From positions 1,568,001-1,632,000 of the forward strand of contig CBDDCK010000005.1 of NCBI GenBank assembly GCA_965225855.1: DNA of 64,000 nucleotides. The letters are read 5' to 3'. Below are positions 22,138 to 60,982 of the stretch, one piece after another. How positions within the stretch are numbered: the stretch's first letter is position 1; each line of letters opens with the position of its first letter. Source of the stretch: Spirochaetia bacterium (GTDB lineage Bacteria > Spirochaetota > Spirochaetia > SP-2023). The notes beneath the pieces are model-generated. The model did not search any database. It saw nothing but the letters and a program-made list of their open reading frames with translations, and was not told the DNA's origin. The translations under genes were made by a program, and so were the position numbers.

Positions 22138-22195
22138 TGATGCAGGACGTGATAACTTTGTGCCATCGGACGTGATAACTCGATTTTTTCTACTT
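22138..22195 (+). repeat. End A terminus (copy 1)
   Basis: TGATGCAGGACGTGATAACTTTGTGCCATCGGACGTGATAACTCGATTTTTTCTACTT; other copies at 26979, 30895(rev), 55409(rev), 58052. Confidence 0.92.
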
Positions 22196-22282
22196 ACCAA
22201 GGCTATAATTGGCAAAAGCAGCCTTGATAAAAAAACTTACCAAGGCTGCAATTGGCCAATGCAAGCGCAGTTAAACCAAACC

Positions 22283-24100
22283 CTACCTTATAACATTAAT
22301 ACCAGTGGTTGGGTCTTCTGGACTACCAGATACAAATTCTGCTGCTGCTTCAAGGTTATATGCACCAGTATTATCACTATCACCAACCTTAACCAGTATC
22401 TTATCGACTTCCGCTTTTACACTACCCCTTAAAGTAATATTTAATCTTGTTGTACTTGCACTAGAACCTGTGGCTCTGTTTACACCTTCATTTGCGTGCC
22501 GGGGTAATGGGTATCTCTTCTTACCATCACCGGATACAATCGTCAATTTGCTAAAGTCCCAGTCTGTAACTGCTCTCGGTAACCTGACACCTCTAATAGT
22601 TAACTCGCCTCCATAATAATCGTAGACTGCACTGGTGATGCTGGCTACATACCCACTAACGGTAATCGGGTTGCTTGGGTCTTCTGCGCTACCACCTGCA
22701 AAGCCTGCTGCTGCTTCCAGGTTGTATGCACCATTAGCATCACGAACACCTTCCTTAACCAGTATCTTCTCGGCTTCCGCTTTTACACTACCGCTTAAAG
22801 TAATACTTAAGTAGGTTGTACCTGCACGAGAACCTGTGGCTGTGTTTTCACCTGCAGTTTCGTGCCGGGGTAATGGGTATCTCTTACTACCATCACCGGA
22901 TACAATCGTCAATTTGCTAAAGTCCCAGTCTGCAACTGCTCTCGGTAACTTGATACCTCTAATATATAACTCGCCTGTATTAGCATTGTAGGTTGCACTG
23001 GTGATGCTGGCTGTATACCCGCTAACGGTAATAGGATTGGTTGTGTCTTCTGCGCTACCACCTGCAAAGCCTGCTGCTGCTTCCAGGTTGTATGCACCAT
23101 TAGCATCACTATCACCATCGTTAACCAGTATCTTCTCGGCTTCCGTTTTTACACTACCGATTAAAGTAATCTGTAAGCCTGTTGCACTTGCACGAGAACC
23201 TATGGCTCTGTTTCTACTTTCAAAACCTACGGCTCTGTTTTCTGGCCGGGGTAATGTGTATCTCTTACTACCATCACCGGATACAATCGTCAATTTGCTA
23301 AAGTCCCAGCCTCTAACTGCTGCTGGTAAATTAGTACCTGTAATCACTAACAAGCCTAAAGTAACATTGTAGGTTGCACCGGTAATTGCAGCTTTAGGCG
23401 ACTCTTGTTCAGCTTGTTCGTCTTGTTCAGCTTGTTCGACTTGTTCAGCTTGTTCGTCTTTAGGTTGCTTAGGCGACTGATCTTCGGTTTCAGTCTTAGA
23501 CTGCTTATCTTCGACTTCTTCAGCTTGTTCGACTTGTTCAGCTTCTTCAGTTTCTTCAGTTTGCTTAGATGGCTGATTGTCATCGGATACTTTAGACTGC
23601 TTATCTTCGACTTCTTCGGTTTGTTCGGCTGCGGGTACATTACTAACGGTTAAGTCTTTGGCTGTATTTAAACCCGCCCAAGCACCAGAGCTAGTAAGCA
23701 ACCCTTTTTTTAGACCATCGCTACCCACCTTGGCCTCAAGAACAGCTTTATGTCGATCGGTAAGTCTAAGCCAAAGCGCTGTGCCATCGCTTTTAATACG
23801 GTACTTACCTTTTGCCAGATTGCTACTATCTGGCCCAGTGGGTTTGGCATCTGCAGTATAGGCACTGAAGGCTACACCATTTGTTCGGCTTCCTACCCTG
23901 ATAGTTTGGATTTGCGCTTCTGTAGGACTTAAGTCAGTACCTTGTACGGTTAACAGAGCCGTAGCAAAGTCGTAGATAGCGTTATTGATAGTCGGCCCAG
24001 AAGAAGATGGCGCATCATCGTCATCGGGTGGGGCGCAGGCCAAGGCCATAAAGACCAGTAGCAATGCTACTGGCAATAAAAATAGTTTGAGCTTATACAT
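22283..24100 (-). CDS. Variable surface lipoprotein, copy 1 (N-domain + acidic linker + 3 B-type repeats)
   Basis: MYKLKL...MALA-C lipobox, GGAGG RBS; paralog of five other copies. Confidence 0.9.
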   Translation of the reverse strand: MYKLKLFLLPVALLLVFMALACAPPDDDDAPSSSGPTINNAIYDFATALLTVQGTDLSPTEAQIQTIRVGSRTNGVAFSAYTADAKPTGPDSSNLAKGKYRIKSDGTALWLRLTDRHKAVLEAKVGSDGLKKGLLTSSGAWAGLNTAKDLTVSNVPAAEQTEEVEDKQSKVSDDNQPSKQTEETEEAEQVEQAEEVEDKQSKTETEDQSPKQPKDEQAEQVEQAEQDEQAEQESPKAAITGATYNVTLGLLVITGTNLPAAVRGWDFSKLTIVSGDGSKRYTLPRPENRAVGFESRNRAIGSRASATGLQITLIGSVKTEAEKILVNDGDSDANGAYNLEAAAGFAGGSAEDTTNPITVSGYTASITSATYNANTGELYIRGIKLPRAVADWDFSKLTIVSGDGSKRYPLPRHETAGENTATGSRAGTTYLSITLSGSVKAEAEKILVKEGVRDANGAYNLEAAAGFAGGSAEDPSNPITVSGYVASITSAVYDYYGGELTIRGVRLPRAVTDWDFSKLTIVSGDGKKRYPLPRHANEGVNRATGSSASTTRLNITLRGSVKAEVDKILVKVGDSDNTGAYNLEAAAEFVSGSPEDPTTGINVIR

Positions 24101-24495
24101 AAGCAATACCTCCAACAATGGATAAAGATTGGCCAACCCATACGGGCTAGTCTGTAAATCCCTATTTTGCTAGGGGGGGTGTTGCGTCAAGGCCTATATA
24201 AGCTTTTTGTAAGTTTTTTTATGTTTAGTGTTGTAAAGTGGTTAAAAATCCATGCCAATCAAAAGGCTTGAGATTATTTGAGATACCTTGAGATTGCTTG
24301 AGATACCTTGGGTAAAAATTTGTAATACGCTAGACGCAGTCCGGGTGTTGCGTTGCGTTTCGTATGAAAGTATAAGAATTTGAGTTTTTTGTATCGCAGT
24401 ACAGCCCAGTTTTTAGCAAAATAATACAATACAATTTTTTGCGATTTTTTTAGAGACTGCCACAGTCTCATTGGAAAATCCCCAGGTTGCCAATC

Positions 24496-24540
24496 AAAAA
24501 AGCTAGTAAGGTTTTCAGTCAAAACCTTACTAGCTTTTTT
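24496..24540. repeat. 20-bp perfect inverted repeat in the End-B-side module (also 48242..48286 and 52423..52467)
   Basis: AAAAAAGCTAGTAAGGTTTT-N5-AAAACCTTACTAGCTTTTTT, with an adjacent third half-copy. Confidence 0.85.
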
Positions 24541-24705
24541 GAAAACCTTATTAGCTTTTTGAGACTGTGGCCCGTTACCATGATATTTTGAAAGCATATT
24601 GTTGCCCAATTACTGCCGACAATGACCCATAGGCCGAAAAACAAAAATTTTTTTACCTTTTTATTTTGGAAAGTAAGCCAATTTTTACCTTCCATTTGTG
24701 CCAAA

Positions 24706-24757
24706 AAAATCCCGAGTTATCACGTCTTATCCCGTTCAGTTATCATGTCCTCTTTCA
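24706..24757 (-). repeat. End B terminus (copy 1)
   Basis: Reverse complement reads TGAAAGAGGACATGATAACTGAACGGGATAAGACGTGATAACTCGGGATTTT; other copies at 48622(rev) and 52029. Confidence 0.92.
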
Positions 24758-25185
24758 ATTAAGCCATATTGCCGATTGGTTGCCAAAGTGATTGCAGAGC
24801 ATTAGCACTATTGTGTATTTTAGTATAGCCGTTAATTAAAATCTATTAATAGTATTAAGAAAGCCTTGTAACAATTGTTATTAGAATTTAGCCGTAACCG
24901 TTGAAAAGTTGGTTTTATAAAAAGCCCTTTCCCAAATTCCCAATAAAAAGCTATATAATATATAATTACTACCACAATAGACAAAATTGAGTACGATAGA
25001 GTGTTTTACATAATGTATCTAATAAATTATTTACCTAAGATCAAACCATAAAAATTACAAATTGATAATCTTTTTTACCTAATATAGTTTATAACTGTTA
25101 TTTTAGTGTGTTTATACTTGCTAACTTACATATTTTAATATATTATAGTGGCCATCTTACATTGTCTTACAAAGGAGAGATAATA

Positions 25186-25347
25186 ATGCAAAAATATGTA
25201 TGTGAAGTTTGTGGTTATGTTTACGATCCGGCTGAAGGTGATCCTGATAATGATATTCCAGCCGGCACTGCTTTTGCCGACTTGCCTGATGATTGGTCTT
25301 GTCCTATGTGTGGTGCAGCAACAGAAGATTTTACAGAAGAAGAATAA
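25186..25347 (+). CDS. Rubredoxin
   Basis: [15 protein letters not shown]...[24 protein letters not shown] at 25186. Confidence 0.96.
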
Positions 25348-25365
25348 ATATAGTGTTTTGTATGG

Positions 25366-25393
25366 GCCAGCCTTTTTTATTGCTGGCTTTTTT
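25366..25393 (+). terminator. Intrinsic terminator after rubredoxin
   Basis: GCCAGC...GCTGGC stem followed by TTTTTT. Confidence 0.65.
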
Positions 25394-25423
25394 ATTAAAT
25401 AAGTAATATAAAGGGATCCGTCT

Positions 25424-25915: not shown

Positions 25916-25920
25916 TAAAA

Positions 25921-26874: not shown

Positions 26875-27046
26875 TTATGATTAGAACTAATCTTAGTTTT
26901 AGTTAGCTTCGTAATTTAATAAAAGTAGGTCCATACTATACGGCATAATAAAGAATAATCCAATATGAAAACACAGCCTGATGCAGGACGCGATAACTTT
27001 GTGCCATCGGACGTGATAACTCGATTTTTTCTACTTTCCAGAATGG

Positions 27047-27282
27047 GTATTTTACCCAATAGCTACTTGAAGTACCACATATTTGGCTGTTGCTATCTTG
27101 CTTTTTATCCTTTTCATCTTGCCAAAGTTTGCCTTGTGGCAATAACGCTAGCAAAGCATCACGATATTGTGCGTTACTATGATTACCTAAAAGCCCCTCA
27201 CCATCTAAGCCCATGTTATTGCTCCTAATGTTAAGATTTTTCTCTGGATACAGCTTTTACTGGCTGTGGCTTGTAATGTCAA
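27047..27282 (-). pseudogene. Phage baseplate remnant: baseplate-J/gp47-like C-terminus overlapping a YmfQ/DUF2313/gp48-like N-terminus
   Basis: ...KILTLGAITWA* overlaps the ATG at 27214 (AGGAG RBS) of MGLDG...QYRDALLALLPQGKLW; sequence recognition only. Confidence 0.5.
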
Positions 27283-27822
27283 TTGCTATAATATAGCTTT
27301 CCGCCTTGGATCAATAGATTGATCGGCCTTGCTATAATATAGCTTTCCGCATTCGATCAAGGCCTTGATCTATTGCGCTTGTTTATCGCTAGCGGATAAG
27401 CTACCGAACATTTTTGCCTACTTTTTATCTCACTAAGCACATCTAAAATTGCTTGCGTTGCATCTATTGAAGCGCTTTCGGTATATACGGTAAGAGCCCC
27501 AGCTAAATACGGGAAGCCAATATAGCCAAAGCTATTGATCATTGCATGGAAACAACCAAAGGCTGGAACAGCCAAAGGCCAAACCAAGCCCTAAACACCC
27601 AGACTTATACAAATTCTTACCCAAGGTATCTGAAGGTATCTGAAGGTATCTCAAGTAATCTATTGCTTACAAACCACCGTATTTGCCTACAACACTAAGA
27701 CACAAAAAACTTACAAAAAGCTTATATAGGCCTTGACGCAACACCCCCCCTAGCAAAATAGGGATTTACAGACTAGCCCGTATGGGTTGGCCAATCTTTA
27801 TCCCTTGTTGGAGGTATTGCTT

Positions 27823-30684
27823 ATGTATAAGCTCAAACTACTTTTATTGCCAGTAGCATTGCTACTGGCCTTTATGGCCTTGGCCTGCGCCCCACCCGAT
27901 GACGATGATCGATCTTCTGGGCCATCTTCTGGGCCGTCTATCAATAATGCCATCTACGACTTTGCTACGGCTCTGTTAACCGTACAAGGTTCTAACTTAA
28001 GTCCTACAACTGCGACCCAAGCGCAAATCCAAACTATCAGGGTAGGAAGCCAAACAAATGGTGTAGACTTCAGTTCCTATACTGCAGATGAGGATGCCAC
28101 TGGTGTAAATAGTAACGGTCTTGAACAAGGTAAGTACCGTATGAAAAGCGATGGCACAGCGCTTTGGCTTAGACTTACCGATCAACATAAAGCTGCTCTT
28201 CAGACCAAGGTGGGTATGAATACCAATGGTCTAAAAAAAGGGTTGCTTACTAGCTCTGGTGCTTGGGCGGGTTTAAATACACCTAAAGACTTGGACGTTA
28301 GGAATGTACCCGAAAATAAGCAGTCTAAAGTATCCGATGACAATCAGCCATCTAAGCAAGCTGAAGAAGACGAACAAGACGAACAAGACGAACAAGCTGA
28401 ACAAGCCAAACAAGCTGAACAAGCCAAACAAGCTGAACAAGTCGAAGATAAGCAGTCTAAGACCGAAACCGAAGATCAGTCGCTTAAGCAAGCCGAAGCT
28501 GCAATTACCGGTGCAAGCTACCATGTTGGCACGGCGCTGTTAACTTTACAAGGTACTCACTTAGCTAGTGCGACCCAAGCGCAAATCCAAACTATCACGG
28601 TAGATGGCTTAGCCTTAAGTTCCTATATTGCAGATGAGGATGCCACTGGGCCAGATAGTCGCGGTCTTGTAAAAGGTAAGTACCGCCTGCATAGCGCTGG
28701 CACAGCGCTTTGGCTTTACCTTACCGATCAACATAAAGCTACTCTGAATGGCAAGACAGGTATGGATAGCAATGGTCTAAAAGATGGGTTGCTTAGCGTT
28801 GGCACTGGTACTTGGGCGGGTTTAAATACAGCCAAAGCCTTGGCCGTTAGTGGAAACCCCGCAATTACCCGTGCAAGCTACAATGTTGGCACGGCGCTGT
28901 TAACTGTACAAGGTACTGACTTAGGTAGTGCGACCCAAGCCCAAATCCAAACCATCGTGGTAGATGGCTTAGCCTTAAGTTCCTATACTGCAGATGGCAC
29001 AGCCACTGGGCCAGATAGTCGCGGTCTTGTAAAAGGTAAGTACCGTATTAAAAGCGATGGCACAGCGCTTTGGCTTTACCTTACCGATGCCGATAAAGCT
29101 ACTCTGAATGGCAAGACAGGTATGGATAGCAATGGTCTAAAAGATGGGTTGCTTACTAGCACTGGTACTTGGGCGGGTTTAGATACAGCCAAAGCCTTGG
29201 CCGTTAGTGGAAACCCCGCAATTACCGGTGCAAGCTACCATGTTGGCACGGCGCTGCTAACTTTACAAGGTACTGACTTAGGTAGTGCGACCCAAGCCCA
29301 AATCCAAACTATCACGGTAGATGGCGTAGCCTTAAATTCCTATATTGCAGATGGCACAGCCACTGGTGAAGATAGTAGCGGTCTTACAAAAGGTAAGTAC
29401 CGCCTGCATAGCGCTGGCACAGCGCTTTGGCTTTACCTTACCGATACCGATAAAGATGCTCTGAATGGCAAGACAGGTATGGATAGCAATGGTCTAAAAG
29501 ATGGGTTGCTTACTAGCACTGGTACTTGGGCGGGTTTAGATACAGCCAAAGCCTTGGCCGTTAGTGGAAACCCACCCGCAATTACCAGTGCAAGCTACAA
29601 TGTTGGCACGGCGCTGTTAACCGTACAAGGTTCTAACTTAAGTCCTACAACTGCGACCCAAGCCCAAATCCAAACCATCACGGTAGATGGGATAGCTTTA
29701 GATTCCTATACTGCAGATGGCACAGCCACTGGGCCAGATAGTCGTGGTCTTGCAAAAGGTAAGTACCGTATGAAAAGCGATGGCACAGCGCTTTGGCTTT
29801 ACCTTACCGATACCGATAAAGCTACTCTGAATGGCAAGACAGGTATGGATAGCAATGGTCTAAAAGATGGGTTGCTTAGCGTTGGTACTGGTGCTTGGGC
29901 GGGTTTAGATACAGCCAAAGCCTTGGCCGTTAGTGGTAACCCACCCACAATTACCCGTGCAACCTACAATGCTGCTACAGGCGTGTTAGTGATTACAGGT
30001 GTCAATTTACCAAAAACAGTTAAAGGCTGGGACTTCACCAAATTGAGGTTTGTCGCAGGTAATGGTCGTACTAAGAGTGCCCCATTATTACGGCACAACC
30101 CAACATTCAGTTTTAGTAGAGCCAAAGGTTCTCGTGCAAGTGCAACAAGCTTAACGATTACTTTAAAGGGTAGAGAAATAGATAAAGCCGATAAGATATT
30201 GGTTAAGAATGGTGATAGTGATGCTGATGGTTTTTACAACCTGGAAGCAGCAGCAGGATTTGCAGGTGGTAGCGCTGAAGACACAAGCAATAACCCTATT
30301 ACCGTTAGTGGGCGTGTAAGCCATATCACCAACGCATTCTACAATTCACGTACAGGCGTGTTAACGATTAATGGTACTGATTTACCGACAACAGTTGCAG
30401 AGTGGGACTTCAGCAAATTGACGCTTGTATCCGGTGATGGTAAGAAGAGATTCACATTACCCCAGCACGCAACCACAGGTGAAAACACAGCCACAGGTTC
30501 TGCAGCAAGTATAACAATCGTAACTATTACTTTAAGCGGTAGTGTAAAAGTGGAAGCCGATGCTATACTTGATACGGCTGGTCTTCAAGATGCTGATGGT
30601 TATTACAACCTTGAAGGAGCAGCAGGATTTGTAATGGGTAGTCCAGCAGACACAAGCAATAACATTATTTATGTTAGTAATTAG
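27823..30684 (+). CDS. Variable surface lipoprotein, copy 2 (N-domain + linker + 4 A-type + 2 B-type repeats)
   Basis: Same signal, lipobox and RBS; tandem repeats of about 120 aa. Confidence 0.9.
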   Translation: MYKLKLLLLPVALLLAFMALACAPPDDDDRSSGPSSGPSINNAIYDFATALLTVQGSNLSPTTATQAQIQTIRVGSQTNGVDFSSYTADEDATGVNSNGLEQGKYRMKSDGTALWLRLTDQHKAALQTKVGMNTNGLKKGLLTSSGAWAGLNTPKDLDVRNVPENKQSKVSDDNQPSKQAEEDEQDEQDEQAEQAKQAEQAKQAEQVEDKQSKTETEDQSLKQAEAAITGASYHVGTALLTLQGTHLASATQAQIQTITVDGLALSSYIADEDATGPDSRGLVKGKYRLHSAGTALWLYLTDQHKATLNGKTGMDSNGLKDGLLSVGTGTWAGLNTAKALAVSGNPAITRASYNVGTALLTVQGTDLGSATQAQIQTIVVDGLALSSYTADGTATGPDSRGLVKGKYRIKSDGTALWLYLTDADKATLNGKTGMDSNGLKDGLLTSTGTWAGLDTAKALAVSGNPAITGASYHVGTALLTLQGTDLGSATQAQIQTITVDGVALNSYIADGTATGEDSSGLTKGKYRLHSAGTALWLYLTDTDKDALNGKTGMDSNGLKDGLLTSTGTWAGLDTAKALAVSGNPPAITSASYNVGTALLTVQGSNLSPTTATQAQIQTITVDGIALDSYTADGTATGPDSRGLAKGKYRMKSDGTALWLYLTDTDKATLNGKTGMDSNGLKDGLLSVGTGAWAGLDTAKALAVSGNPPTITRATYNAATGVLVITGVNLPKTVKGWDFTKLRFVAGNGRTKSAPLLRHNPTFSFSRAKGSRASATSLTITLKGREIDKADKILVKNGDSDADGFYNLEAAAGFAGGSAEDTSNNPITVSGRVSHITNAFYNSRTGVLTINGTDLPTTVAEWDFSKLTLVSGDGKKRFTLPQHATTGENTATGSAASITIVTITLSGSVKVEADAILDTAGLQDADGYYNLEGAAGFVMGSPADTSNNIIYVSN

Positions 30685-30895
30685 TTTGACTGCGCTTGCC
30701 CAATAGCTCTTATAGCAGCTAAGTGAAAGCTAGCGGGCGGTCAACCAAGTAAATGCGGTAAGCAATGCTTGGTTGGCTTATTGCAGCCTTGGTAAGTTTT
30801 TTATCAAGGCTGCTTTTATCAATTATAGCCATTCTGGAAAGTAGAAGAGTCGAGTTATCACGTCCGATGGCACAAAGTTATCACGTCCTGCATCA

Positions 30896-31012
30896 TAGCG
30901 CGGCATTCATCTGGATAGTTTTCATATATCCAATCAGCCATTTCCCGAGTAGTAAATTTTTGTTCAGGATTTTGACGTAAGCATTCAATAGCTTTTTCTG
31001 TAAGTTAAACAT
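30896..31012 (-). pseudogene. 5' fragment of a COG2958/HrgA-like gene, frameshifted and cut at End A
   Basis: Homologous to 60983..61100; ...GAATGCCGCGCTA is followed directly by TGATGCAGG, where the intact copy has AACAAG. Confidence 0.85.
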
Positions 31013-31264
31013 ATTTTCAAGACCTATAATATTATGCTGTGTCCATAATTCAGATATAATGAAATCTTGTCTAGTCCCCATGTTTGAAAAGCGCGTAAAT
31101 TGTGGTTAAACAGATACTTTTCAAACCGGGCAAATCCCGTTTACAAAGTGATGAGGCAAAAATATGGGAGAAAATAAGAATTTTCTTGACAGATGGTCAA
31201 ACCTGTGCAATGATAATAGAATATTGTACTTTAGCTTGTAATTTAAAAGGAATCTTAGAGTTTT

Positions 31265-32044: not shown

Positions 32045-32107
32045 CAAATTATCCTATAGATATATTTTGAGGGCTAGTCCCTTATATTTTCCCATTGGAG
32101 GTTTATT

Positions 32108-33466: not shown

Positions 33467-33478
33467 CAGGATAACTGT

Positions 33479-34345: not shown

Positions 34346-34356
34346 AGAAATTTCCA

Positions 34357-35169: not shown

Positions 35170-35229
35170 ATTTACTTCATTGAAAAGTGTAAAATTTTTA
35201 TCTTTCGATTTGAAATAAGATGAAGCCAT

Positions 35230-35755: not shown

Positions 35756-35764
35756 AAAAACTCC

Positions 35765-39852: not shown

Positions 39853-40200
39853 TACCCTAGTCTTTAATGAACTTTTCTACATCGGCAATACGCAGTTTGC
39901 CGGATAGTGTAATCAAGTATTTTATTCAATTCTACACTTTCCCACTCCAAAGCAACAAACCCAAAACAATGTATGGCCAAAATTGTTTGCGTGAAGAGCC
40001 CCAGCTAAATACCCAGAAGCCCATATAGCCCAAGCTAAAGTACCCTAACACAAAAAAAGTGCCCAAACATAAAAAAAGCACAAAAAAACTTACAAAAAGC
40101 TTATATAGGCCTTGACGCAACACCCCCCTAGCAAAATAGGGATTTACACACTAGCCCGTATGGGTTGGCCAATCTTTATCCATTGTTGGAGGTATTGCTT

Positions 40201-45843: not shown

Positions 45844-47805
45844 CTACTTACCAACTGATGTAACTTGAATATTATTGTTTAGGTCTTCTGCGCTACCACC
45901 TACAAAGCCTGCTGCTGCTTCAAAGTTGTATGCACCAGCATTATCACTTCTACCAGCCTTAACCAGTATAGCATTGGCTTTGGCTTTTACATTACCGCTT
46001 AAAGTAATTATTAAGGCTGTTTCACTTGCACTAGAACCTGTGGCTCTGTTTTCACCTGTAGTTGAGTGCCGGGGTAATGTGTATCTCTTCTTACCATCAC
46101 CGGATACAAGTGTCAATTTGCTAAAGTCCCAGTCTGCAACTGCTGTCGGTAACCTGCTACCAATAATAGTTAACTGGCCTATGTTAAAACTGTAGTATGC
46201 TGCATCGATGCTGGCTACATACCCACTAACGGTAATAGGGTTGCTTGGGTCTTCTGCGCTACCACCTGCAAAGCCTGCTGCTGCTTCCAGGTTGTATGCA
46301 CCATTAGCATCACGAACACCTTCCTTAACCAGTATAGCATTGGCTTTGGCTTTTACACTACCTATTAACTGAATAAATAAGCTTGTTGCACTTGCTTTAG
46401 AACCTTCGGCTCTGTTTCTACTTCCATAACCATAGGTTTTGCTGTTATGCCGGGGTAATGTGAATCTCTTATTACCATCACCGGATACAAGCGTCAATTT
46501 GCTAAAGTCCCAGCTATTCACTGTTGCTGGTAAATTGACACCTGTAATCAATAACTCGCTTATACGAACATCGTAGGTTGCACTGGTAATTGCGGGTGCG
46601 GGGTTACCACTAACGGACAAGTCTTTGGCTGTATCTAAACCCGCCCAAGTACCAGTGCCAACGCTAAGCAACCCTTCTCTTAGACCATTGCTATCCATAC
46701 CTGTCTTGCCATTCAGAGTAGTTTTATGTTGATCGGTAAGGTAAAGCCAAAGCGCTGTGCCATCGTTTGCAATGCGGTATTTACCTTTTGCAAGACCACG
46801 ACTATCTGGCCCAGTGGCTGTGCCATCTGCAGTATAGGAACTTAAGGCTAAGCCATCTACCGTAATGGTTTGGATTTGGGCTTGGGTCGCAGTTGTAGCA
46901 CTTAAGTGAGTACCTTGCAAGGTTAACAGCGCCGTGCCAACATGGTAGGTTGCACGGGTAATTGCAGCTTCGGGTAGTTCAGGCGACTCTTCTTCGACTT
47001 CTTCAGCTTGTTCGACTTCAGTTTGCTTAGGCGACTCTTCTTCAGCTTGTTCGGCTTGTTTGGCTTGTTCAGCTTGTTCGTCTTCAGTTTGCTTAGGCGA
47101 CTCTTCTTCAGCTTGTTCGGCTTGTTTGGCTTGTTCAGCTTGTTCGTCTTCAGTTTGCTTAGGCGACTCTTCTTCAGCTTGTTCGGCTTGTTTGGCTTGT
47201 TCAGCTTGTTCGTCTTCAGTTTGCTTAGGCGACTCTTCTTCAGCTTGTTCGGCTTGTTTGGCTTGTTCAGCTTGTTCGTCTTCAGTTTGCTTAGATGGCT
47301 GATTGTCATCGGATACTTTAGACTGCTTATCGGGTACATTCCTAACGTCCAAGTCTTTGGCTGTATTTAAACCCGCCCAAGCACCAGAGCCAACGCTAAG
47401 CAAGCCTTTTTTTAGACCATTGCTACCCACCTTGCCATTCAGAGTAGCTTTATGTTGATCTTTAAGTTTCAGCCAAATCGCTGTGCCATCGCTTTTAATA
47501 CGGTACTTACCTTTTGCAAGACCGCTACTATTTACCCCAGTGGCATCGTCATCTGCAGTATAGGAACTTAAGGCTACACCATTTGTTCGGCTTCCTACCC
47601 TGATAGTTTGGATTTGGGCTTCTGTAGGACTTAAGTTCGTGCCTTGTACGGTTAAGATAGCCGTAGCAAAGTCGTAGATGGCGTTATTGATAGTCGGCTT
47701 AGACGGCCCAGAAGATCGATCATCGTCATCGGGTGGTGCGCAGGCCAAGGCCATAAAGGCCAGTAGCAATGCTAATGGCAATAAAAATAGTTTGAGCTTA
47801 TACAT
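45844..47805 (-). CDS. Variable surface lipoprotein, copy 4 (N-domain + expanded linker + 1 A + 2 B repeats)
   Basis: Same signal, lipobox and RBS; End B upstream at 48622, End A missing. Confidence 0.9.
   Translation of the reverse strand: MYKLKLFLLPLALLLAFMALACAPPDDDDRSSGPSKPTINNAIYDFATAILTVQGTNLSPTEAQIQTIRVGSRTNGVALSSYTADDDATGVNSSGLAKGKYRIKSDGTAIWLKLKDQHKATLNGKVGSNGLKKGLLSVGSGAWAGLNTAKDLDVRNVPDKQSKVSDDNQPSKQTEDEQAEQAKQAEQAEEESPKQTEDEQAEQAKQAEQAEEESPKQTEDEQAEQAKQAEQAEEESPKQTEDEQAEQAKQAEQAEEESPKQTEVEQAEEVEEESPELPEAAITRATYHVGTALLTLQGTHLSATTATQAQIQTITVDGLALSSYTADGTATGPDSRGLAKGKYRIANDGTALWLYLTDQHKTTLNGKTGMDSNGLREGLLSVGTGTWAGLDTAKDLSVSGNPAPAITSATYDVRISELLITGVNLPATVNSWDFSKLTLVSGDGNKRFTLPRHNSKTYGYGSRNRAEGSKASATSLFIQLIGSVKAKANAILVKEGVRDANGAYNLEAAAGFAGGSAEDPSNPITVSGYVASIDAAYYSFNIGQLTIIGSRLPTAVADWDFSKLTLVSGDGKKRYTLPRHSTTGENRATGSSASETALIITLSGNVKAKANAILVKAGRSDNAGAYNFEAAAGFVGGSAEDLNNNIQVTSVGK
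47029..47293 (-). repeat. Four 66-bp in-frame tandem repeats (KQTEDEQAEQAKQAEQAEEESP) in copy 4
   Basis: GCGACTCTTC recurs at 47031, 47097, 47163 and 47229. Confidence 0.92.
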
Positions 47806-47934
47806 AAGCAATACCTCCAACAAGGGATAAAGATTAACCAACCCATACGGGCTAGTGTGTAAATCCCCATTTTGCTAGGGGGGGTGTTGCGTCAAGGCCT
47901 ATATAAGGCTTTTTGTAAGTTTTTTTGTGTCTTA

Positions 47935-47980
47935 GTGTTGTTTTGTGTTGTTTTGTGTTGTTTTGTGTTGTTTTGTGTTG
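47935..47980. repeat. 10-bp VNTR (TTTTGTGTTG x4 plus a partial unit) upstream of the copy-4 promoter
   Basis: Read directly; about one unit in copy 1 and two in copy 6. Confidence 0.9.
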
Positions 47981-48570
47981 TAAGGTGGTTAAAATCAATG
48001 CCAATCAAAAGGCTTGAGATTATTTGAGATACCTTGAGATTGCTTGAGATACCTTGGGTAAAAATTTGTAATACGCTAGACGCAGTCCGGGTGTTGCGTT
48101 GCGTTTCGTATGAAAGTATAAGAATTTGAGTTTTTTATATCGCAGTACAGCCCAGTTTTTAGCAAAATAATACAATACAATTTTTTGCGATTTTTTTAGA
48201 GACTGCCACAGTCTCATTGGAAAATCCCCAGGTTGCCAATCAAAAAAGCTAGTAAGGTTTTCAGTCAAAACCTTACTAGCTTTTTTGAAAACCTTATTAG
48301 CTTTTTGAGACCGTGGCCCGTTACCATGATATTTTGAAAGCATATTGTTGCCGACAACCCATATGCCGAAAAACAAAAATTTTTTACTTGTTCCATTTGT
48401 GGATTCAGCCGAAAGGCACAAAAAAAGCGGTGCATGGTTTGGTTATCCTAGCACCGCTTTGGCTTTTTGAAGTTTTGAGCGTTTTTGCTCTGGTTTGGTG
48501 TTAAAAATGGATTCTGGCTTTTTCTCGTGCTTGGAAAGTAAGCCAATTTTTACCTTCCATATTGTTCCAA

Positions 48571-48622
48571 AAAATCCCGAGTTATCGCGCCTTATCCCGT
48601 TCAGTTATCATGTCCTCTTTCA
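48571..48622 (-). repeat. End B terminus (copy 2), followed by CCTAAT
   Basis: AAAATCCCGAGTTATCGCGCCTTATCCCGTTCAGTTATCATGTCCTCTTTCA|CCTAAT. Confidence 0.9.
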
Positions 48623-48630
48623 CCTAATGA

Positions 48631-51927: not shown

Positions 51928-52804
51928 AGGGTCTCCTTATTATGAAAGTGTAATTTGGCAATATAAAATCTATAGTCAGTAGCAAAACTATCATAATTAG
52001 TAGATAAAGTATAGAGATTGAGCTTAATTGAAAGAGGACATGATAACTGAACGGGATAAGACGTGATAACTCGGGATTTTTTGGAACAAATGGGAAGGTA
52101 AAATTGGCTTACTTTCCAAAATAAAAAAGTAAAACCAAAATAAAAAAGTAAAAAATTTTCATTGCACGAGAAAAAGCCAGAATCCATTTTTAACACCAAA
52201 CCAGAGAAAAAACGCTCAAAACTTCAAAAAGCCAAAGCGGTGCCAGGATAACCAAACCATGCACCGCTTTTTTTATGCCTTTCGGCTGAATCCACAAATG
52301 GAACAAGTAAAAAATTTTTGTTTTTCGGCCTATGGGCCATTGTCGGCAGTAATTGGGCAACAATATGCTTTCAAAATATCATGGTAACGGGCCACGGTCT
52401 CAAAAAGCTAGTAAGGTTTCTGAAAAAAGCTAGTAAGGTTTTGACTGAAAACCTTACTAGCTTTTTTGATTGGCAACCTAGGGATTTTCCAATGAGACTG
52501 TGGCAGTCTCTAAAAAAATCGCAAAAAATTGTATTGTATTATTTTGCTAAAAACTGGGCTGTACTGCGATACAAAAAACTCAAATTCTTATACTTTCATA
52601 CGAAACGCAACGCAACACCCGGACTGCGTCTAGCGTATTACAAATTTTTACCCAAGGTATCTCAAGCAATCTCAAGGTATCTCAAATAATCTCAAGCCTT
52701 TTGATTGGCATGGATTTTTAACCACCTTACAACACTAACACACAAAAAAAGTGCCCAAAACATAAAAAAAGCACAAAAAAACTTGCAAAAAGCTTATATA
52801 GGCC

Positions 52805-52831
52805 TTGACGCAACACCCCCCCTAGCAAAAT
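52805..52831 (+). promoter_or_regulatory. Putative sigma70 promoter of the lipoprotein family (TTGACG-CAACA-C7-TAG-CAAAAT), conserved in all six copies
   Basis: The same motif lies about 60-90 bp upstream of every copy; the -10 assignment is uncertain. Confidence 0.55.
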
Positions 52832-52894
52832 GGGGCACTGTACACTAGCCCGTATGGGTTGGCCAATCTTTATCCATTGTTGGAGGTATTGCTT

Positions 52895-54994
52895 ATGTAT
52901 AAGCACAAACTATTTTTATTGCCAGTAGCCTGGCTACTGGCCTTTATGGCCTTGGCCTGCGCACCACCCGATGACGATGATCGATCTTCTGGGCCGTCTG
53001 GGCCTGCAATCACCAGTGCAAGCTACGATGTTGGCACGGCGCTGTTAACCGTACAAGGTTCTAACTTAAGTCCTACAACTGCGACCCAAGCGCAAATCCA
53101 AACTATCAGGGTAGGAAGCCGAACAAATGGTGTAGCCTTAGATTCCTATACTGCAGATGACCCAGCCACTGGGCCAGATAGTAACGGTCTTGCAAAAGGT
53201 AAGTACCGTATTAAAAGCGATGGCACAAAGCTTTGGCTGAAACTTAAAGATGCCGATAAAGCTACTCTGAATGGCAAGCCCGGTATGAATAAGGATGGTC
53301 TAAAAAAAGGGTTGCTTAGCGTTAGCACTGGTGCTTGGGCGGGTTTAAATACAGCCAAAGACTTAACCGTTAGGAATATACCCGCAGCCGAAGAAGTCGA
53401 TGATCAATCGCGTAAGCAAACTGAAGACGAACAAGTCGAACAAACCGAAGAAGTCGAAGATAAGCAGTCTAAAGTATCCGATGACAATCAGCCATCTAAG
53501 CAAACTGAAGAAGCTGAACAAGACGAACAAGCTGAACAAGTCGAAGAGGAGTCGCCTAAAGCTGCAATTACCGGTGCAAGCTACCATGTTGGCACGGCGC
53601 TGTTAACCTTGCAAGGTTCTAACTTAAGTGCTACAACTGCGACCCAAGCCCAAATCCAAACCATTACGGTAGATGGCTTAGCCTTAAGTTCCTATACTGC
53701 AGATGCCACAGCCACTGGGGCAGATAGTCGCGGTCTTGCAAAAGGTAAGTACCGCCTGCATAGCGCTGGCACAGCGCTTTGGCTAAAACTTACCGATCAA
53801 CATAAAGCTACTCTGAATGGCAAAACAGGTATGGATAGCAATGGTCTAAAAGATGGGTTGCTCAGCGTTGGCACTGGTGCTTGGGCGGGTTTAAATACAG
53901 CCAAAGCCTTGGCCGTTAGTGGAAACCCCGCACCCGCAATTACCAGTGCAACTTACAATGTTGGCACGGCGCTGCTAACCGTACAAGGTACTGACTTAGG
54001 TAGTGCGACCCAAGCGCAAATCCAAACCATTACGGTAGATGGCGTAGCCTTAAGTTCCTATACTGCCACAGCCACTGGGGCAGATAGTCGCAGTCTTGTA
54101 AAAGGTAAGTACCGCATTAAAAACGATGGCACAGCGCTTTGGCTGAAACTTACCGATACCGATAAAGCTACTCTGAATGGCAAGACAGGTATGGATAGCA
54201 ATGGTCTAAAAGATGGGTTGCTTACTAGCACTGGTACTTGGGCGGGTTTAAATACAGCCAAAGCCTTGGCCGTTAGTGGACACCCACCCGCAATTACCAG
54301 TGCAAGCTACAATGTTGCTACAGGCGTGTTAGTGATTACAGGTACTAATTTACCGTCAACAGTGAATAGCTGGGACTTTAGCAAATTGAGGTTTGTCGCA
54401 GGTAATGGTGATAAGAGTGGACCATTATTCCAGCGAGCTTCAACTAAACACTCCGCCACAGGTTCTGCAGCAAGTGCAACAAGCTTAACGATTACTTTAG
54501 GGGGTAGTGAAAAAAGGAAAGCCGATAAGATACTGGTTAAGAATGGTGATAGTGATGATAATGGTGCATACAACCTGGAAGCAGCAGCAGGATTTGCAGG
54601 TGGTAGCGCAGCAGACACAGGCAATAACCCGATTACCGTTAGTGGCTACGTAAGCCAGATCAGCTCCGTACAATACAGTGATAATGGTAATATAGGTATA
54701 TTAGAGATTTATGGTAGCGGTTTACCGACAACAGTTGAAGAGTGGGACTTTAACAAATTGACGATTGTATCCGGTGATGGTAGTAATAGATACACATTAC
54801 CCCAGCACGAAACTGCAGGTGAAAACAGAGCCACAGGTCTTAGGGCAAGTAGAATCAGATTAATTATTACTTTAAGGGGTAGTGTAAAAGCGGAAGCCGA
54901 TAAGATACTGGTTAAGAATGGCAACCTTGAAGCAGCAACAGGATTTGTAACGGGTAGTCCAGCAGACCTAAAAAATGCTATAACGTTGTATTGA
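52895..54994 (+). CDS. Variable surface lipoprotein, copy 5 (N-domain + linker + 2 A + 2 B repeats)
   Basis: Same signal, lipobox and RBS. Confidence 0.9.
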   Translation: MYKHKLFLLPVAWLLAFMALACAPPDDDDRSSGPSGPAITSASYDVGTALLTVQGSNLSPTTATQAQIQTIRVGSRTNGVALDSYTADDPATGPDSNGLAKGKYRIKSDGTKLWLKLKDADKATLNGKPGMNKDGLKKGLLSVSTGAWAGLNTAKDLTVRNIPAAEEVDDQSRKQTEDEQVEQTEEVEDKQSKVSDDNQPSKQTEEAEQDEQAEQVEEESPKAAITGASYHVGTALLTLQGSNLSATTATQAQIQTITVDGLALSSYTADATATGADSRGLAKGKYRLHSAGTALWLKLTDQHKATLNGKTGMDSNGLKDGLLSVGTGAWAGLNTAKALAVSGNPAPAITSATYNVGTALLTVQGTDLGSATQAQIQTITVDGVALSSYTATATGADSRSLVKGKYRIKNDGTALWLKLTDTDKATLNGKTGMDSNGLKDGLLTSTGTWAGLNTAKALAVSGHPPAITSASYNVATGVLVITGTNLPSTVNSWDFSKLRFVAGNGDKSGPLFQRASTKHSATGSAASATSLTITLGGSEKRKADKILVKNGDSDDNGAYNLEAAAGFAGGSAADTGNNPITVSGYVSQISSVQYSDNGNIGILEIYGSGLPTTVEEWDFNKLTIVSGDGSNRYTLPQHETAGENRATGLRASRIRLIITLRGSVKAEADKILVKNGNLEAATGFVTGSPADLKNAITLY

Positions 54995-55067
54995 TAAGTA
55001 GGGTTTGGTTTAACCTTGCTTGCCCAATAGCTCTTAGAGCATAGGCTAAGTGAAAGCTAGCGGGCAG

Positions 55068-55111
55068 GCCAACCAAGTAAATGCGGTAAGCAATGCTTGG
55101 TTGGCTTTTTT
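55068..55111 (+). terminator. Intrinsic terminator downstream of the lipoprotein (hairpin also in copies 2, 3 and 4)
   Basis: GCCAACCAAGTA...TGCTTGGTTGGC followed by TTTTTT. Confidence 0.7.
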
Positions 55112-55248
55112 GTTGGGCTATTAGGCTGTATCTTGTTGTTGCAACGCTTGCATTGGCCAATTGCAGCCTTGGTAAGTTTTTTTATCAAGGCTGCTTTTAT
55201 CAATTATAGCCTTGGTATAAAGTATTGTTCCGCATTGGTGCAATACAT

Positions 55249-55288
55249 CTTTCCGCCTTGGATCAAGGCCTTGATCCAAGGCGGAAAG
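55249..55288. repeat. Perfect 40-bp palindrome (also 58172..58211; decayed copies near 27297..27380)
   Basis: CTTTCCGCCTTGGATCAAGG|CCTTGATCCAAGGCGGAAAG. Confidence 0.92.
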
Positions 55289-55499
55289 CTATATCATAGC
55301 AAGTCTAGAAAAATTTATTAAGGCTGCTTTTGCCAATTATAGCCATTCTGGAAAGTAGAAGAGTCGAGTTATCACGTCCGATGGCACAAAGTTATCACGT
55401 CCTGCATCAGCTTGGTGGCAAGGGGCTTTGACTTTTTAGTGGTTTGGGTTATATTTAACGGCAAATAAAAACCTTTTAAAACAACCAAAAGGAGAACAT

Positions 55500-57152: not shown

Positions 57153-57293
57153 GTTTATTCTTAAACAATTCATTTTATTAACACCATGCCTACTATAGCC
57201 AATATAGCATGGCATAGCGGCCTGCTCTATTAGGAGCCGAATATTCTATGCTGTGGTAATAGCTATCGCTTTTACAGATAAAAATAGAAGGGA

Positions 57294-57893
57294 TTGTCTT
57301 TACTAAACAGAACCAGCCTAATACTAGCTGTTTTACATCTATTTTTACACCTAATATATATTACAGGTATAGGTAATAGTGAGATAAAGGTTATAGATAA
57401 TAAGGCCTATCTATCGGGAATTTTAGGTACTCGTACCTATCATCAAGTTAAAAAGCTAATCCAAGAGTACCCAGATATAAAGACGATTATAATGACCAAT
57501 GTTCCCGGTTCGATCAATGATATGGTCAACATGCACACGGGAAGGTTGCTAAGACAAAACGGTTTTACAACCCAATTACCATTTAATAGCGACATTGCTT
57601 CTGGAGGGGTAGATTTATTCACCGCAGGAGTTAAGCGAATTGTTACCAAAGGAGCGAAGTTGGGCGTACACTCTTGGTGTTGTGTCGATGATTTAACTGC
57701 AGCGGATGTAGAGCCAGAACATCCCGCCTATAAGTACCAGCTAGACTACTTTAGCGAAATGCTAGGTATTCACAAAGGTTATGACTTTTATTTTTATACT
57801 TTGCAAGCCGCTCCATTTGATGGGGTATACTACATGACCGACAAAGAAATAAAAGACTGGGGCCTTGCGACTCAATTTATAGATACACCATAA
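57294..57893 (+). CDS. Hypothetical exported protein (COG3904-like, ClpP/crotonase-type fold suspected)
   Basis: NVPGS, IASGGVDLF.AG..R, LGVHSW; TTG start uncertain. Confidence 0.6.
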   Translation: MSLLNRTSLILAVLHLFLHLIYITGIGNSEIKVIDNKAYLSGILGTRTYHQVKKLIQEYPDIKTIIMTNVPGSINDMVNMHTGRLLRQNGFTTQLPFNSDIASGGVDLFTAGVKRIVTKGAKLGVHSWCCVDDLTAADVEPEHPAYKYQLDYFSEMLGIHKGYDFYFYTLQAAPFDGVYYMTDKEIKDWGLATQFIDTP

Positions 57894-58051
57894 CTAAGCC
57901 CAAAGCTAAAGGCCTGCTAGCCAGCCGGTTGGACCGATGTAAGGGAGCTTATTTTCAGCCTTGTACTTTTGGGGGCACAGATTATAAGGTATTTAGGGCA
58001 TAGGGCTTAGGTTTAAGGTGAAACTAGAGTGATATGCGGATTTTAATTAAC

Positions 58052-58110
58052 TGATGCAGGACGTGATAACTTTGTGCCATCGGACATGATAACTCGATTT
58101 TTTTCTACTT
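58052..58110 (+). repeat. End A terminus of cassette 6
   Basis: TGATGCAGGACGTGATAACTTTGTGCCATCGGACATGATAACTCG. Confidence 0.9.
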
Positions 58111-58330
58111 ACCAAGGCTATAATTGGCAAAAGCAGCCTTAATAAATTTTTCTAGCCTTGCTATGATATAGCTTTCCGCCTTGGATCAAGGCCTTGATCC
58201 AAGGCGGAAAGATGTATTGCACCAATGCGGAACAATACTTTATACCAAGGCTATAATTGGCAAAAGCAACCTTGATAAAAAACTTACCAAGGCTGCAATA
58301 GGCCAATGCAAGCGTTGCAACAACCAAAAC

Positions 58331-60118
58331 CTAATTTATAACATTAATACTAGTGGTTGGGTCTGCTGGACTACCCGTTACAAATTCTGCTGCTGCTTCC
58401 AGGTTGTATGAACCATTAGCATCACGAAGACCAACCTTAACCAGTATCTTCTCGGCTTCCGCTTTTACACTACCGCTTAAAATAATACTTAAGTAGGTTG
58501 CATCTGCTGCAGAACCTGTGGCTGTGTTTTCACCTGCAGTTGAGTGCTGGGGTAATGTGTATTTCTTCTTACCATCACCAGATACAAGTGTCAATTTGCT
58601 AAAGTCCCAGCCTTCAACTGCTGTCGGTAAACGGCTACCGTAAATCCGTAACTGGCCACTATTAGAAAAGTAGTATACGTTGTCGATCTGGCTTGTGTAG
58701 CCACTAACGGTAATAGGGTTGCTTGTGTCTTCAGCGCTATCACCTGCAAATCCTGCTGCTGCTTCAAGGTTGTATGCACCAGCATCATCACTTTTACCAT
58801 TCTTAACCAATATCCTATCGGCTTCCGTTTTTACACTACCGCTTAAATTAATATTTACTTTGTTTCTAATTGCACCAGAACCTGTGGCTCTGTTTGCACC
58901 TGTGGTTGCGTGCCGTGGTAATGTGAATCTCTTCTTACCATCACCGGATACAAGCGTCAATTTGCTAAAGTCCCACTCTTCAACTTTTGACGGTAAACTT
59001 TGACCATTAATCACTAACAAGCCTGTGTTAACATAGTAGTATGCGTCATCGATTCTGACTACATACCCACTAACGGTAATAGGGTTATTGCTTGTGTCTT
59101 CAGCCCTACCACCTGCAAATCCTGCTGCTGCTTCAAGGTTGTATGCACCACCATGTTTTCCTGTAAGACCATTCCTAGACAATATTTTATCGGATTCCGC
59201 TTCCGCTTTTACTCTACCGCTTAAAGTAATCGTTAAGCTTGTTGCACTTGCTTTAGAACCTGTGGCTCTGTTTGCACCTGTGGTTGAGTGCTGGGGTAAT
59301 GTGTAGCTGGATAAACTATATAAATTATAATATTGTACAAACCTCAATTTGCTAAAGTCCCAGTCATCCACTGTTTTTGGTAAATTAGTACCTGTAATCA
59401 CTAACACACCTGTAGCAACATTGTAGGTTGCACGGGTAATTGCAGCTTCGGCTTGCTTAAGCGACTGATCTTCGGTTTCGGTCTTAGACTGCTTATCTTC
59501 GACTTCTTCGGTTTGTTCGGCTTGCTTAGGCGACTGATCTTCAGTTTCGGTCTTAGACTGCTTATCTTCGACTTCTTCAGCTTGTTCGTCTTGTTCAGTT
59601 TCTTCAGTTTGCTTAGATGGCTGATTGTCATCGGATACTTTAGACTGCTTATTTTCGGGTACATTACTAACTTCCAAGTCTTTGGCTGTATCTAAACCCG
59701 CCCAAGCACCAGTGCTAGTAAGCAACCCTTTTTTTAGACCATTGCTACCCACCTTGCCATTCAGAGCAGCTTTATGTTGATCGGTAAGTCTAAGCCAAAG
59801 CGCTGTGCCATCGCCTTTCAGGCGGTACTTACCTTGTTCAAGACCGTTACTATTTAGCCCAGTGGCATCGTCATCTGCAGTATAGGAACTTAAGGCTACG
59901 CCATCTACTACGATGGTTTGGATTTGGGCTTCTGTAGGACTTAAGTCAGTACCTTGTACGGTTAACAGAGCCGTAGCAAAGTCGTAGATGGCGTTATTGA
60001 TAGTCGGCCCAGAAGATGGCGCACCATTGTCATCGTTGTCATCGGGTGGGGCGCAGGCCAAGGCCATAAAGGCCAGTAGCCAGGCTACAGGCAATAAAAA
60101 TAGTTTGTGCTTATACAT
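58331..60118 (-). CDS. Variable surface lipoprotein, copy 6 (N-domain + linker + 3 B repeats)
   Basis: Same signal, lipobox and RBS; End A present, End B missing. Confidence 0.9.
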   Translation of the reverse strand: MYKHKLFLLPVAWLLAFMALACAPPDDNDDNGAPSSGPTINNAIYDFATALLTVQGTDLSPTEAQIQTIVVDGVALSSYTADDDATGLNSNGLEQGKYRLKGDGTALWLRLTDQHKAALNGKVGSNGLKKGLLTSTGAWAGLDTAKDLEVSNVPENKQSKVSDDNQPSKQTEETEQDEQAEEVEDKQSKTETEDQSPKQAEQTEEVEDKQSKTETEDQSLKQAEAAITRATYNVATGVLVITGTNLPKTVDDWDFSKLRFVQYYNLYSLSSYTLPQHSTTGANRATGSKASATSLTITLSGRVKAEAESDKILSRNGLTGKHGGAYNLEAAAGFAGGRAEDTSNNPITVSGYVVRIDDAYYYVNTGLLVINGQSLPSKVEEWDFSKLTLVSGDGKKRFTLPRHATTGANRATGSGAIRNKVNINLSGSVKTEADRILVKNGKSDDAGAYNLEAAAGFAGDSAEDTSNPITVSGYTSQIDNVYYFSNSGQLRIYGSRLPTAVEGWDFSKLTLVSGDGKKKYTLPQHSTAGENTATGSAADATYLSIILSGSVKAEAEKILVKVGLRDANGSYNLEAAAEFVTGSPADPTTSINVIN

Positions 60119-60396
60119 AAGCAATACCTCCAAAAATGGATAAAGATTGGCCAACCCATACGGGCTAGTGTACAGTGCCCCATTTTGCTAGGGGGGGTGT
60201 TGCGTCAAGGCCTTTATAAGCTTTTTACAAGTTTTTTTGTGTTTTTTTATGTTTGGGGCACTTTTTTGTGTGTTAGTGTTGTTTAGTGTTGTAAGGTAGT
60301 TCAAAATCAATGCCAATCAAAAGGCTTATGTTTGGCCTTTGGGGGGTGGCAAAGTGTAGAATTGAATAAAATACTTGATTACACCTTAATTACACT

Positions 60397-60504
60397 ATGG
60401 GGCAATCTCCAAAAGGTGAAACATTTAATGAAAATGAAAACGGGATATTATTCTTTCAGGGGCATTCAGAATTTGGCCAACGATTGCCGATGATTGTTGT
60501 ATAG
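60397..60504 (+). pseudogene. Fragment of a type I restriction-modification HsdS target-recognition domain
   Basis: MGQSPKGETFNENENGILFFQGHSEFGQRLP resembles the MGQSP...FFQG..EFG motif of HsdS subunits. Confidence 0.65.
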
Positions 60505-60554
60505 GTCCTTGATTATGTGCCGATGTAGAAAATTTCATTAAAGACTAGGGTATC

Positions 60555-60733
60555 AATAGGTGGGAGGTAAATCTATTGATAGATTTAGGTCAATTCTATC
60601 AATAAGTGGGAGGTAATTCTATAGTTAGATTTGGGTCAATTCTATTAATAGGTGGGAGGTAAATCTATGGATAGATTTGGGTCAATTCTATTAAATAGGT
60701 GGGAGGTAATTCTATAGTTAGATTTGGGTCGAT
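60555..60733 (+). repeat. About four tandem copies of a 46-bp unit
   Basis: Units start at 60555, 60601, 60647 and 60694; no unique spacers. Confidence 0.9.
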
Positions 60734-60982
60734 AATTTTTTACTTGTTCCATTTGTGGATTCAGCCGAAAGGCATAAAAAAAGCGGTGCATGGTTTGACC
60801 ATCTGTCAAGAAAATTCTTATTTTCTCCCATATTTTTGCCTCATCACTTTGTAAACGGGATTTGCCCGGTTTGAAAAGTATCTGTTTAACCACAATTTAC
60901 GTGCTTTTCAAACATGGGGACTAGACAAGATTTCATTATATCTGAATTATAGACACAGCATAATATTATAGGTCTTGAAAAT

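Follow-up and report, generated by a model that had tools for sequence, protein, structure and literature searches.

Several described systems share parts of the arrangement reported here, in which genes for a variable lipoprotein lie between the ends of a transposable prophage in a 64-kb stretch of a Spirochaetia bacterium genome. In Xanthomonas, genes for transcription activator-like effectors (TALEs) occur in mobile insertion cassettes (MICs), where the passenger gene is flanked by the inverted repeats of the Tn3-family element TnXax1; the account in PMC4337579 places 45% of TALEs in MICs. The laboratory mini-Mu, mini-D3112 and mini-B3 vectors hold a passenger between phage ends and depend on a transposase supplied in trans (PMC8705779). 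As described in the same source, B3 and Tn552 transposases produce 6-bp target duplications; B3/BcepMu/Tn552-type prophages include those of Leptospira, whose example, CCTACT, fits the flank pattern seen here. In Treponema pallidum tp0126 and tpr genes and in Neisseria porA, a mononucleotide run between the -35 and -10 boxes sets their spacing, with 17 bp being permissive (as summarised in PMC7864442). Borrelia cp32 prophages carry Erp/Rev lipoproteins and, in the treatment of PMC10016077, are linked to the multiplication of paralogous lipoproteins.

The window, by which we mean the whole stretch analyzed, is C5:1568001-1632000 (64 kb). It belongs to an assembly of 2.71 Mb in 5 contigs that is 94% complete, whose UvrB protein finds its best named matches among spirochaetes (61-63% identity); unprefixed positions are those of the window, and positions on contigs carry the prefix C3, C4 or C5. 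A preliminary description of the window had proposed non-autonomous, mini-Mu-like cassettes that disperse and shuffle a surface lipoprotein gene. Our analysis supports part of this proposal. We put at roughly three in four the probability that these are natural mini-Mu cassettes built on B3/BcepMu-type prophage ends, likely moved by the prophage transposase in trans and later reshuffled by homologous recombination.

Prophage ends around a lipoprotein gene family

Two kinds of end, End A and End B, border the lipoprotein genes. Both open with TGA and hold two GACGTGATAAC-like sites 23 bp apart, giving TGA…TCA termini; 8 of the 32 A ends have a single site only. A search of the whole genome located 32 copies of each end, and 58 of these 64 adjoin a gene of the family, so the association is not due to chance. 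Four more ends lie on prophage copies and two are isolated. Relative to open reading frames (ORFs) of at least 150 amino acids (aa), 63 of the 64 are intergenic.

The preliminary description had called for a full-length element with the same ends, encoding a MuA/IstA-type transposase and an ATPase. An element with these ends, a DDE transposase and an AAA ATPase exists: a prophage of 36,089 bp (C5:1257678-1293766) whose left terminus is an End B and whose right terminus is an End A, and which contains the only rve match in the assembly. Its genes include terminase, portal, head, sheath, tape measure, repressor, a Mor-like activator, a 586-aa transposase (C5:1273165-1274925, single-copy) and a 279-aa AAA ATPase. 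The transposase and ATPase match profiles phrog_310 (E 1.8e-70) and phrog_296 and carry the domains rve and AAA_22. The best phage matches of the transposase, at 28-37%, are to B3/BcepMu-type phages (Ps59, BcepMu, phiE255). A sequence search of PDB with the transposase gave 0 matches at E<=1, the rve_3 profile found nothing in the assembly, and neither did the Mu-transpos_C profile, which left the controls unmatched as well. The left end of the prophage carries an ArdC-like anti-restriction gene.

Over 43-270 bp the cassette ends correspond to the termini of the prophage, which bears out the earlier view that they are DDE-type transposable-phage ends. Cassettes keep 72-270 bp of the left end and mostly 43-73 bp of the right end; a few A ends, including the upstream one at 26979, keep longer collinear prophage scraps. 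The prophage itself retains open reading frames for transposase, ATPase and repressor, but its tape measure gene is split, and portal and baseplate J have each had the 3′ part exchanged for sequence that includes a 46-bp repeat. Baseplate J is intact in a partial second prophage copy that runs off the end of C4. The 46-bp repeat forms 45 clusters genome-wide (for example at 55258-55300 and 58168-58181 in the window), occurs in cassette 3′ modules and in short tandem arrays, and is also found at the breakpoints that destroyed the portal and baseplate-J genes.

Prophages in two of three same-genus genomes (G001, G002) have homologous ends at matching positions. When these were used as queries, the prophage ends of each relative were found once in G002 and twice in G001, with no parallel expansion. 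The G002 prophage (G002:C1:229792-257556) measures about 27.8 kb between intact ends, and the genes for head and packaging found no match in it. The End pattern had 0 matches in a genome-contig database and in 0 of 5 relatives; 12 matches among viral contigs were rejected, as all are an unrelated short tandem repeat upstream of terminase.

The lipoprotein query matched 114 ORFs, of which the 106 full-length members make up 8.2% of the genome. Sorted by flanking ends, 17 have B and A, 13 B only, 9 A only, one A on both sides, and 66 none, leaving 40 of 106 with at least one end. Genes with an End B upstream tend also to have an End A downstream (Fisher P 5.5e-6). Complete units span 2.35-3.7 kb, and the gene is always oriented from B to A. 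All 17 short facing A/B pairs hold a family gene; among the 64 ends genome-wide no empty A-B element was found. End-bearing genes are scattered on both gene trees (P 0.41 and 0.96; the 5′ tree excludes two diverged paralogs). The interior of the cassettes is not confined to genes with ends: of 61 end-less genes with enough flank for the test, 53 share at least half of the outer upstream repeat with cassette interiors.

Two further loci depart from the simple unit. At C5:1027022-1041147, 14 kb lie between an End B and an End A whose flanks match at 5 of 6 positions, and contain two family genes, prophage scraps, a peptide ABC transporter operon and a MATE-like gene (the last two named from sequence by eye); this is possibly a larger cargo island. 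At C5:402242-405702 a complete cassette sits between direct repeats of 232 bp (99%) rather than 6 bp, which could reflect two insertions, 232 bp from each other, that recombined. A family of small coiled-coil proteins, with repeats of the MDKRFEQ type, has nine copies (one at C3:37308-37769), several apparently just 3′ of end-less lipoprotein genes.

Evidence for transposition

Exact 6-bp target duplications flank five of the 17 complete cassettes; when the null preserves the target bias, the chance is 0.0014 per pair. These five units bear the cassette-type B tip, not that of the prophage. Among 59 distinct flank 6-mers, 24 have a central TA, against a background of 8%. On C3, an End A is joined exactly at the last base of its TCA to a site inside the prophage's own repressor gene, and in the window the End A at 30895 interrupts a paralog of the gene at 60983-61915. 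The End A junction of the cassette at C5:45577-48292 is crossed by an independent short-read contig reaching 37 letters inside, from a run that is possibly the source sample; a contig from a second study likewise reaches this junction and includes 20 letters of End A. Joining the flanks at nine sites (the five duplication-flanked cassettes and four wider pairs) restored no long frame open on both sides, the best being 129 and 44 codons.

Loci of the window

The window holds six paralogous lipoprotein ORFs, at 22283-24136 (-), 27787-30684 (+), 40165-42954 (+), 45844-47841 (-), 52859-54994 (+) and 58331-60154 (-), and, as first described, one predicted promoter and 3′ hairpin modules are common to all six. 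Their orientation had been called alternating; the order is -,+,+,-,+,-, and along contig C5 orientation switches at 45 of 81 steps, which is random. End A occurs at 22138+, 26979+, 30895-, 55409- and 58052+, and End B at 24757-, 48622- and 52029+. The features are as follows.

22132..22137, plus strand: 6-bp flank CCTAAT at the MFS gene stop codon; direct repeat at 48623-48628 beyond End B 48622
22138..22199, plus strand: End A of unit 1 (prophage right end, two sites, 23-bp period)
22283..24100, minus strand: lipoprotein gene 1; likely start ATG 24100; lipobox ALAC; 1 type I and 3 type II repeats
24164..24190, minus strand: predicted promoter of gene 1; C7 run, 15-bp spacer
24651..24757, minus strand: End B of unit 1 (prophage left end, ~105 bp)
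26979..27467, plus strand: prophage-type End A and prophage interior scraps (101 bp of the right end; broken baseplate-J tail with 46-bp repeats; 89-bp internal piece)
27733..27759, plus strand: predicted promoter of gene 2; C7, 15-bp spacer
27823..30684, plus strand: lipoprotein gene 2; 5 type I and 2 type II repeats
30825..30895, minus strand: End A of unit 2
30897..31004, minus strand: 5′ stub of the paralog of gene 60983-61915, severed at End A; 75% identity over residues 4-39
40112..40137, plus strand: predicted promoter of gene 3; C6, 14-bp spacer
40201..42954, plus strand: lipoprotein gene 3; phage end absent on both sides
45844..47805, minus strand: lipoprotein gene 4 (End B only)
47869..47895, minus strand: predicted promoter of gene 4; C7, 15-bp spacer
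48396..48622, minus strand: End B of gene 4 with prophage left-end sequence
52029..52298, plus strand: End B of unit 5, including 270 bp of prophage left end (~95% identity)
52299..52804, plus strand: inner module of unit 5, non-coding, non-phage, common to cassettes
52805..52831, plus strand: predicted promoter of gene 5; C7, 15-bp spacer
52895..54994, plus strand: lipoprotein gene 5; 3 type I and 2 type II repeats
54995..55338, plus strand: 3′ module of unit 5; terminator-like hairpin 55163-55194; one 46-bp repeat copy
55339..55409, minus strand: End A of unit 5
58052..58114, plus strand: End A of unit 6
58331..60118, minus strand: lipoprotein gene 6
60182..60208, minus strand: predicted promoter of gene 6; C7, 15-bp spacer
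60752..60797, minus strand: End B module remnant of unit 6 (prophage bases 225-270); tip swapped at CAAACC microhomology for a 211-bp inverted copy of 30993-31203

The two units proposed to be complete, 22138-24757 and 52029-55409, are so, with an end located on each side. Inside each unit of the window the lipoprotein is the sole long ORF, the rest being antisense shadows, in agreement with the claim that the units contain neither transposase nor recombinase. The remaining units had been described as having lost one or both ends or as carrying End A twice. The doubled End A is present at 26979-30895, gene 4 has End B only, and gene 6 has End A only together with a clipped B module whose junction records the loss. 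Gene 3 has no end; it and the other end-less genes may have lost theirs. End loss is also evident at C5:1301505.

The outer window ends at 22138 and 48622 are both flanked by CCTAAT, the one such case among 13 facing A/B pairs 5-60 kb apart, with 0.018 expected. This suggests that the intervening 26.5 kb recombined into an existing cassette or moved as one composite unit.

The 211-bp inverted duplication (98%) between 30993-31203 and 60792-61002 sets the promoter region of the SDR gene against the clipped End B module, the two meeting at the 6-bp microhomology. At 12378-17918 there are two tandem pairs of lipoprotein-like paralogs (478/489 aa and 331/345 aa) unrelated to the cassette family.

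The predicted promoter and the protein family

In 104 genes of the family the predicted promoter consists of TTGAC, a run of C6-C9 and a CAAAAT-type hexamer, with predicted -35 and -10 boxes. The run is C6 in 18 genes, C7 in 84, C8 in one and C9 in one, giving spacers of 14, 15, 16 and 17 bp; homopolymer errors in the assembly could contribute to the C6/C7 split. These promoters account for 86 of the 136 C7/G7 runs of the genome, and the sole run of nine is also theirs. In the regions upstream of 1278 other ORFs, the spacing between TTGAC and the -10 peaks at 16-17 bp and 15 is at background. A -10-like hexamer at 16-18 bp is absent in 99 of the 104 family promoters and present in 5. By their spacing, the copies predicted to be on are C5:800631, C5:1508615 and C5:1901464, possibly also C3:28722 and C5:597115. 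The two diverged paralogs have TTGACA-17-TAAATT. Read from its layout, the C run suggests phase variation of single copies.

A lipobox is present in all 106 proteins (ALAC in 75, AFAC in 29, AFSC in 2). The six proteins of the window consist of an acidic linker and 4-7 repeats of ~120 aa, which fall into two types. The type II repeat is homologous to the repeats of giant DUF4347/RTX/Big_9 proteins, with 498 representatives at E<=0.001; against protein P0092 it has 33% identity (E 5e-17), and the carriers bear DUF4347, Big_9, cadherin or RTX domains. Structure modelling, which covered the type II repeat, gave three Ig-like beta-sandwiches (predicted local distance difference test score 89.9), and the best fold match, Z 7.8 to the S-layer protein SbsC, is at a generic level. 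The lipoprotein is presumably located at the cell surface, where it may act as an antigen or adhesin, as had been proposed. Pfam matches of the lipoproteins (CrtC and others) were rejected: no stretch passed alone, and the six window proteins contain no convincing domain. An Atlas search returned unnamed clusters, with a recognition value below threshold.

The family was found in 0 of 30 relatives, and with the repeat profile in 0 of 12; none turned up in a metagenome-contig database. A run from another study carries the family in many variants, though depth there yields no copy number. The repeats also occur, with lower identity, in lipoproteins P0107, P0127 and P0228 from other assemblies, so that other organisms have related families; P0107 used as a query gave matches at the level of the signal peptide only, in 1 of 5 relatives. 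Two long, diverged members at C5:353655-357602 and C5:571733-574801, which lack the modules and whose promoter has a regular 17-bp spacing, are candidates for ancestral genes.

The genes are mosaic. The same paralog is nearest at both gene ends in only 7 of 106, and near-identical chassis carry different genes. This argues for homologous recombination between copies, which fits better as the route of shuffling than the transposition favored in the preliminary description.

Discussion

In our preferred account, an internal deletion and a capture event would have placed a family gene between phage ends. Bursts of transposase activity would have scattered the cassettes into TA-centred, nearly always intergenic sites, and recombination, deletion and rearrangement would later have stripped duplications and ends from many loci. 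Slippage in the C run would alter the -35/-10 spacing, so that few of ~100 intact genes might be expressed at once. The outcome would be a switchable coat of Ig-like rods.

Several observations weigh against this account. The ends and duplications fit cassettes that multiply the gene, as originally claimed, but 66 of 106 genes have no end, so the cassette directly explains at most part of the dispersal. Of those 66, 65 lack any phage remnant, and at the edges of end-less genes 6-bp repeats are no more frequent than expected (15, with 11.4 ± 3.0 expected). Twelve of the 17 complete cassettes have no duplication, including both window units, whose flanks CCTAAT/ATTAAG and CTTAAT/GCTTGG do not match. 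Genome-wide, displaced matches between A and B flanks number 3 against 1.4 expected (P 0.17). Five B ends have one flank in common, so some end-bearing loci were copied along with their flank by a route other than transposition. The closest gene pair shares 79% of 31-mers and none is near-identical; there is thus no sign of very recent jumps. The prophage has no target duplication, and its left tip is one base short and deviates from the first 10 bases of the cassettes, which indicates that the present copy is not their direct template. No empty site came to light: gene order in same-genus relatives is too broken for synteny to reveal one, and for the cassette at C5:45577-48292 no skipping joint was among the joints listed for contigs of 4 of the 8 runs, which is not evidence of absence. 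Possible assembly error in the C runs belongs on the same side of the balance.

One way to accommodate the end-less genes is that the family grew mainly by recombination-based duplication, and that the ends caught one copy late, affecting a minority of loci as a side branch. The 66 end-less genes and the lack of remnants in 65 of them fit this idea, as do near-duplicate pairs that are often both end-less, the five B ends duplicated with their flank, and the cassette between 232-bp direct repeats. A side branch sits poorly with end-bearing genes that form no clade on either tree, with inner modules that also occur in end-less genes, and with the secondary loss of ends at 60752-60797 and C5:1301505. 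Moreover, ~100 separate sites in random orientation call for some mechanism of insertion, and the searches of the assembly yielded no other transposase. We hold this alternative to be unlikely as a general explanation; it and the transposition of mini-Mu cassettes can both hold, each for part of the loci. Quite unlikely, in our judgement, is that the gene never jumped, and that transposition of the prophage or of an empty mini-element came first and provided a landing pad into which lipoprotein genes later recombined via shared end and module sequence. Sequence does pass freely between copies: the cassette at 52029 and the one at C5:156270-159390 share 805 upstream 31-mers and only 2% of coding 31-mers. 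Some A ends are also followed by collinear scraps of the prophage. Yet every one of the 17 short facing pairs is filled, always from B to A, none of the 64 ends belongs to an empty element, and the duplication-flanked units carry a cassette-type rather than a prophage-type B tip.

The ends might also come from an unrelated IS21- or Tn7-type element, families in which TG...CA termini with tandem sites are common, or the multiplicity might be an assembly artefact. Both are very improbable. The ends bound a complete transposable prophage, the sole rve protein is that of the phage, and no IstB exceeded the cut-off in this 94% complete assembly, so the IS21 option mentioned in the preliminary description is not supported. 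As for an artefact, every gene copy differs, and the independent short-read contig spans the End A junction at C5:45577-48292.

A wider reading than the dispersal of mini-Mu cassettes is that a transposable phage has been domesticated to run a complete system of antigenic variation. The crippled prophage would be kept for its transposase, the ends would have seeded all ~100 loci, recombination would remix the Ig-like repeats, and the C run would silence ~95% of the intact genes, leaving a few on display. We offer this tentatively and consider it doubtful in its full extent. Such a system would be a dispersed, phage-built counterpart to the vls/vmp or var repertoires.

Comparison with known systems

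To judge from the sequence, the Xanthomonas TALE MICs are the nearest known case: the cassettes would qualify as MICs in having a passenger between ends, no transposase, and duplications. The likeness to the MICs of PMC4337579 extends to a passenger from a repetitive, variable multigene family, to duplications at some copies only, to solo ends and to members without ends; 38% of genes here have at least one end. The cassettes differ from the MICs described there in their phage ends, in a 6-bp duplication, in 106 members that occupy 8.2% of the genome, and in a lipoprotein cargo with a C-run promoter. Compared with the mini-Mu, mini-D3112 and mini-B3 vectors as outlined in PMC8705779, they are natural, occupy dozens of loci and carry a host surface-protein gene. 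No natural mini-Mu amplifying a host gene turned up in a literature search with poor subscription coverage.

The prophage resembles the B3/BcepMu/Tn552-type prophages of that source in its 36-kb size, TG-CA ends, related transposase and ATPase, Mor, GemA-like and head/tail genes, and the 6-bp duplication associated with its ends. It differs in that virion genes of the resident copy are broken and no duplication flanks it, and in that the ends outnumber the prophage ~30:1. Whereas Borrelia cp32, as presented in PMC10016077, consists of whole episomal prophages, here there are phage ends only and the genes are scattered in the chromosome. The Treponema and Neisseria promoters covered in PMC7864442 belong to just a few genes, compared with 104 paralogs that have the predicted layout here. 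With Ig-like repeat adhesins of the DUF4347/RTX/Big_9 kind, the lipoproteins have in common a homologous tandem repeat, the type II repeat, modelled as a beta-sandwich.

Phage ends tied to a 106-gene family over 8% of a small genome point to a route by which a prophage could build a repertoire of variable proteins quickly in one lineage. This raises two questions: do the transposases of transposable phages mobilise host cargo in trans under natural conditions, and can a C run in the promoter give near-exclusive expression over ~100 dispersed genes? Set beside the known systems, what appears to be new here is the use of transposable-phage ends, the scale, the lipoprotein cargo and the layout of the C-run promoter.

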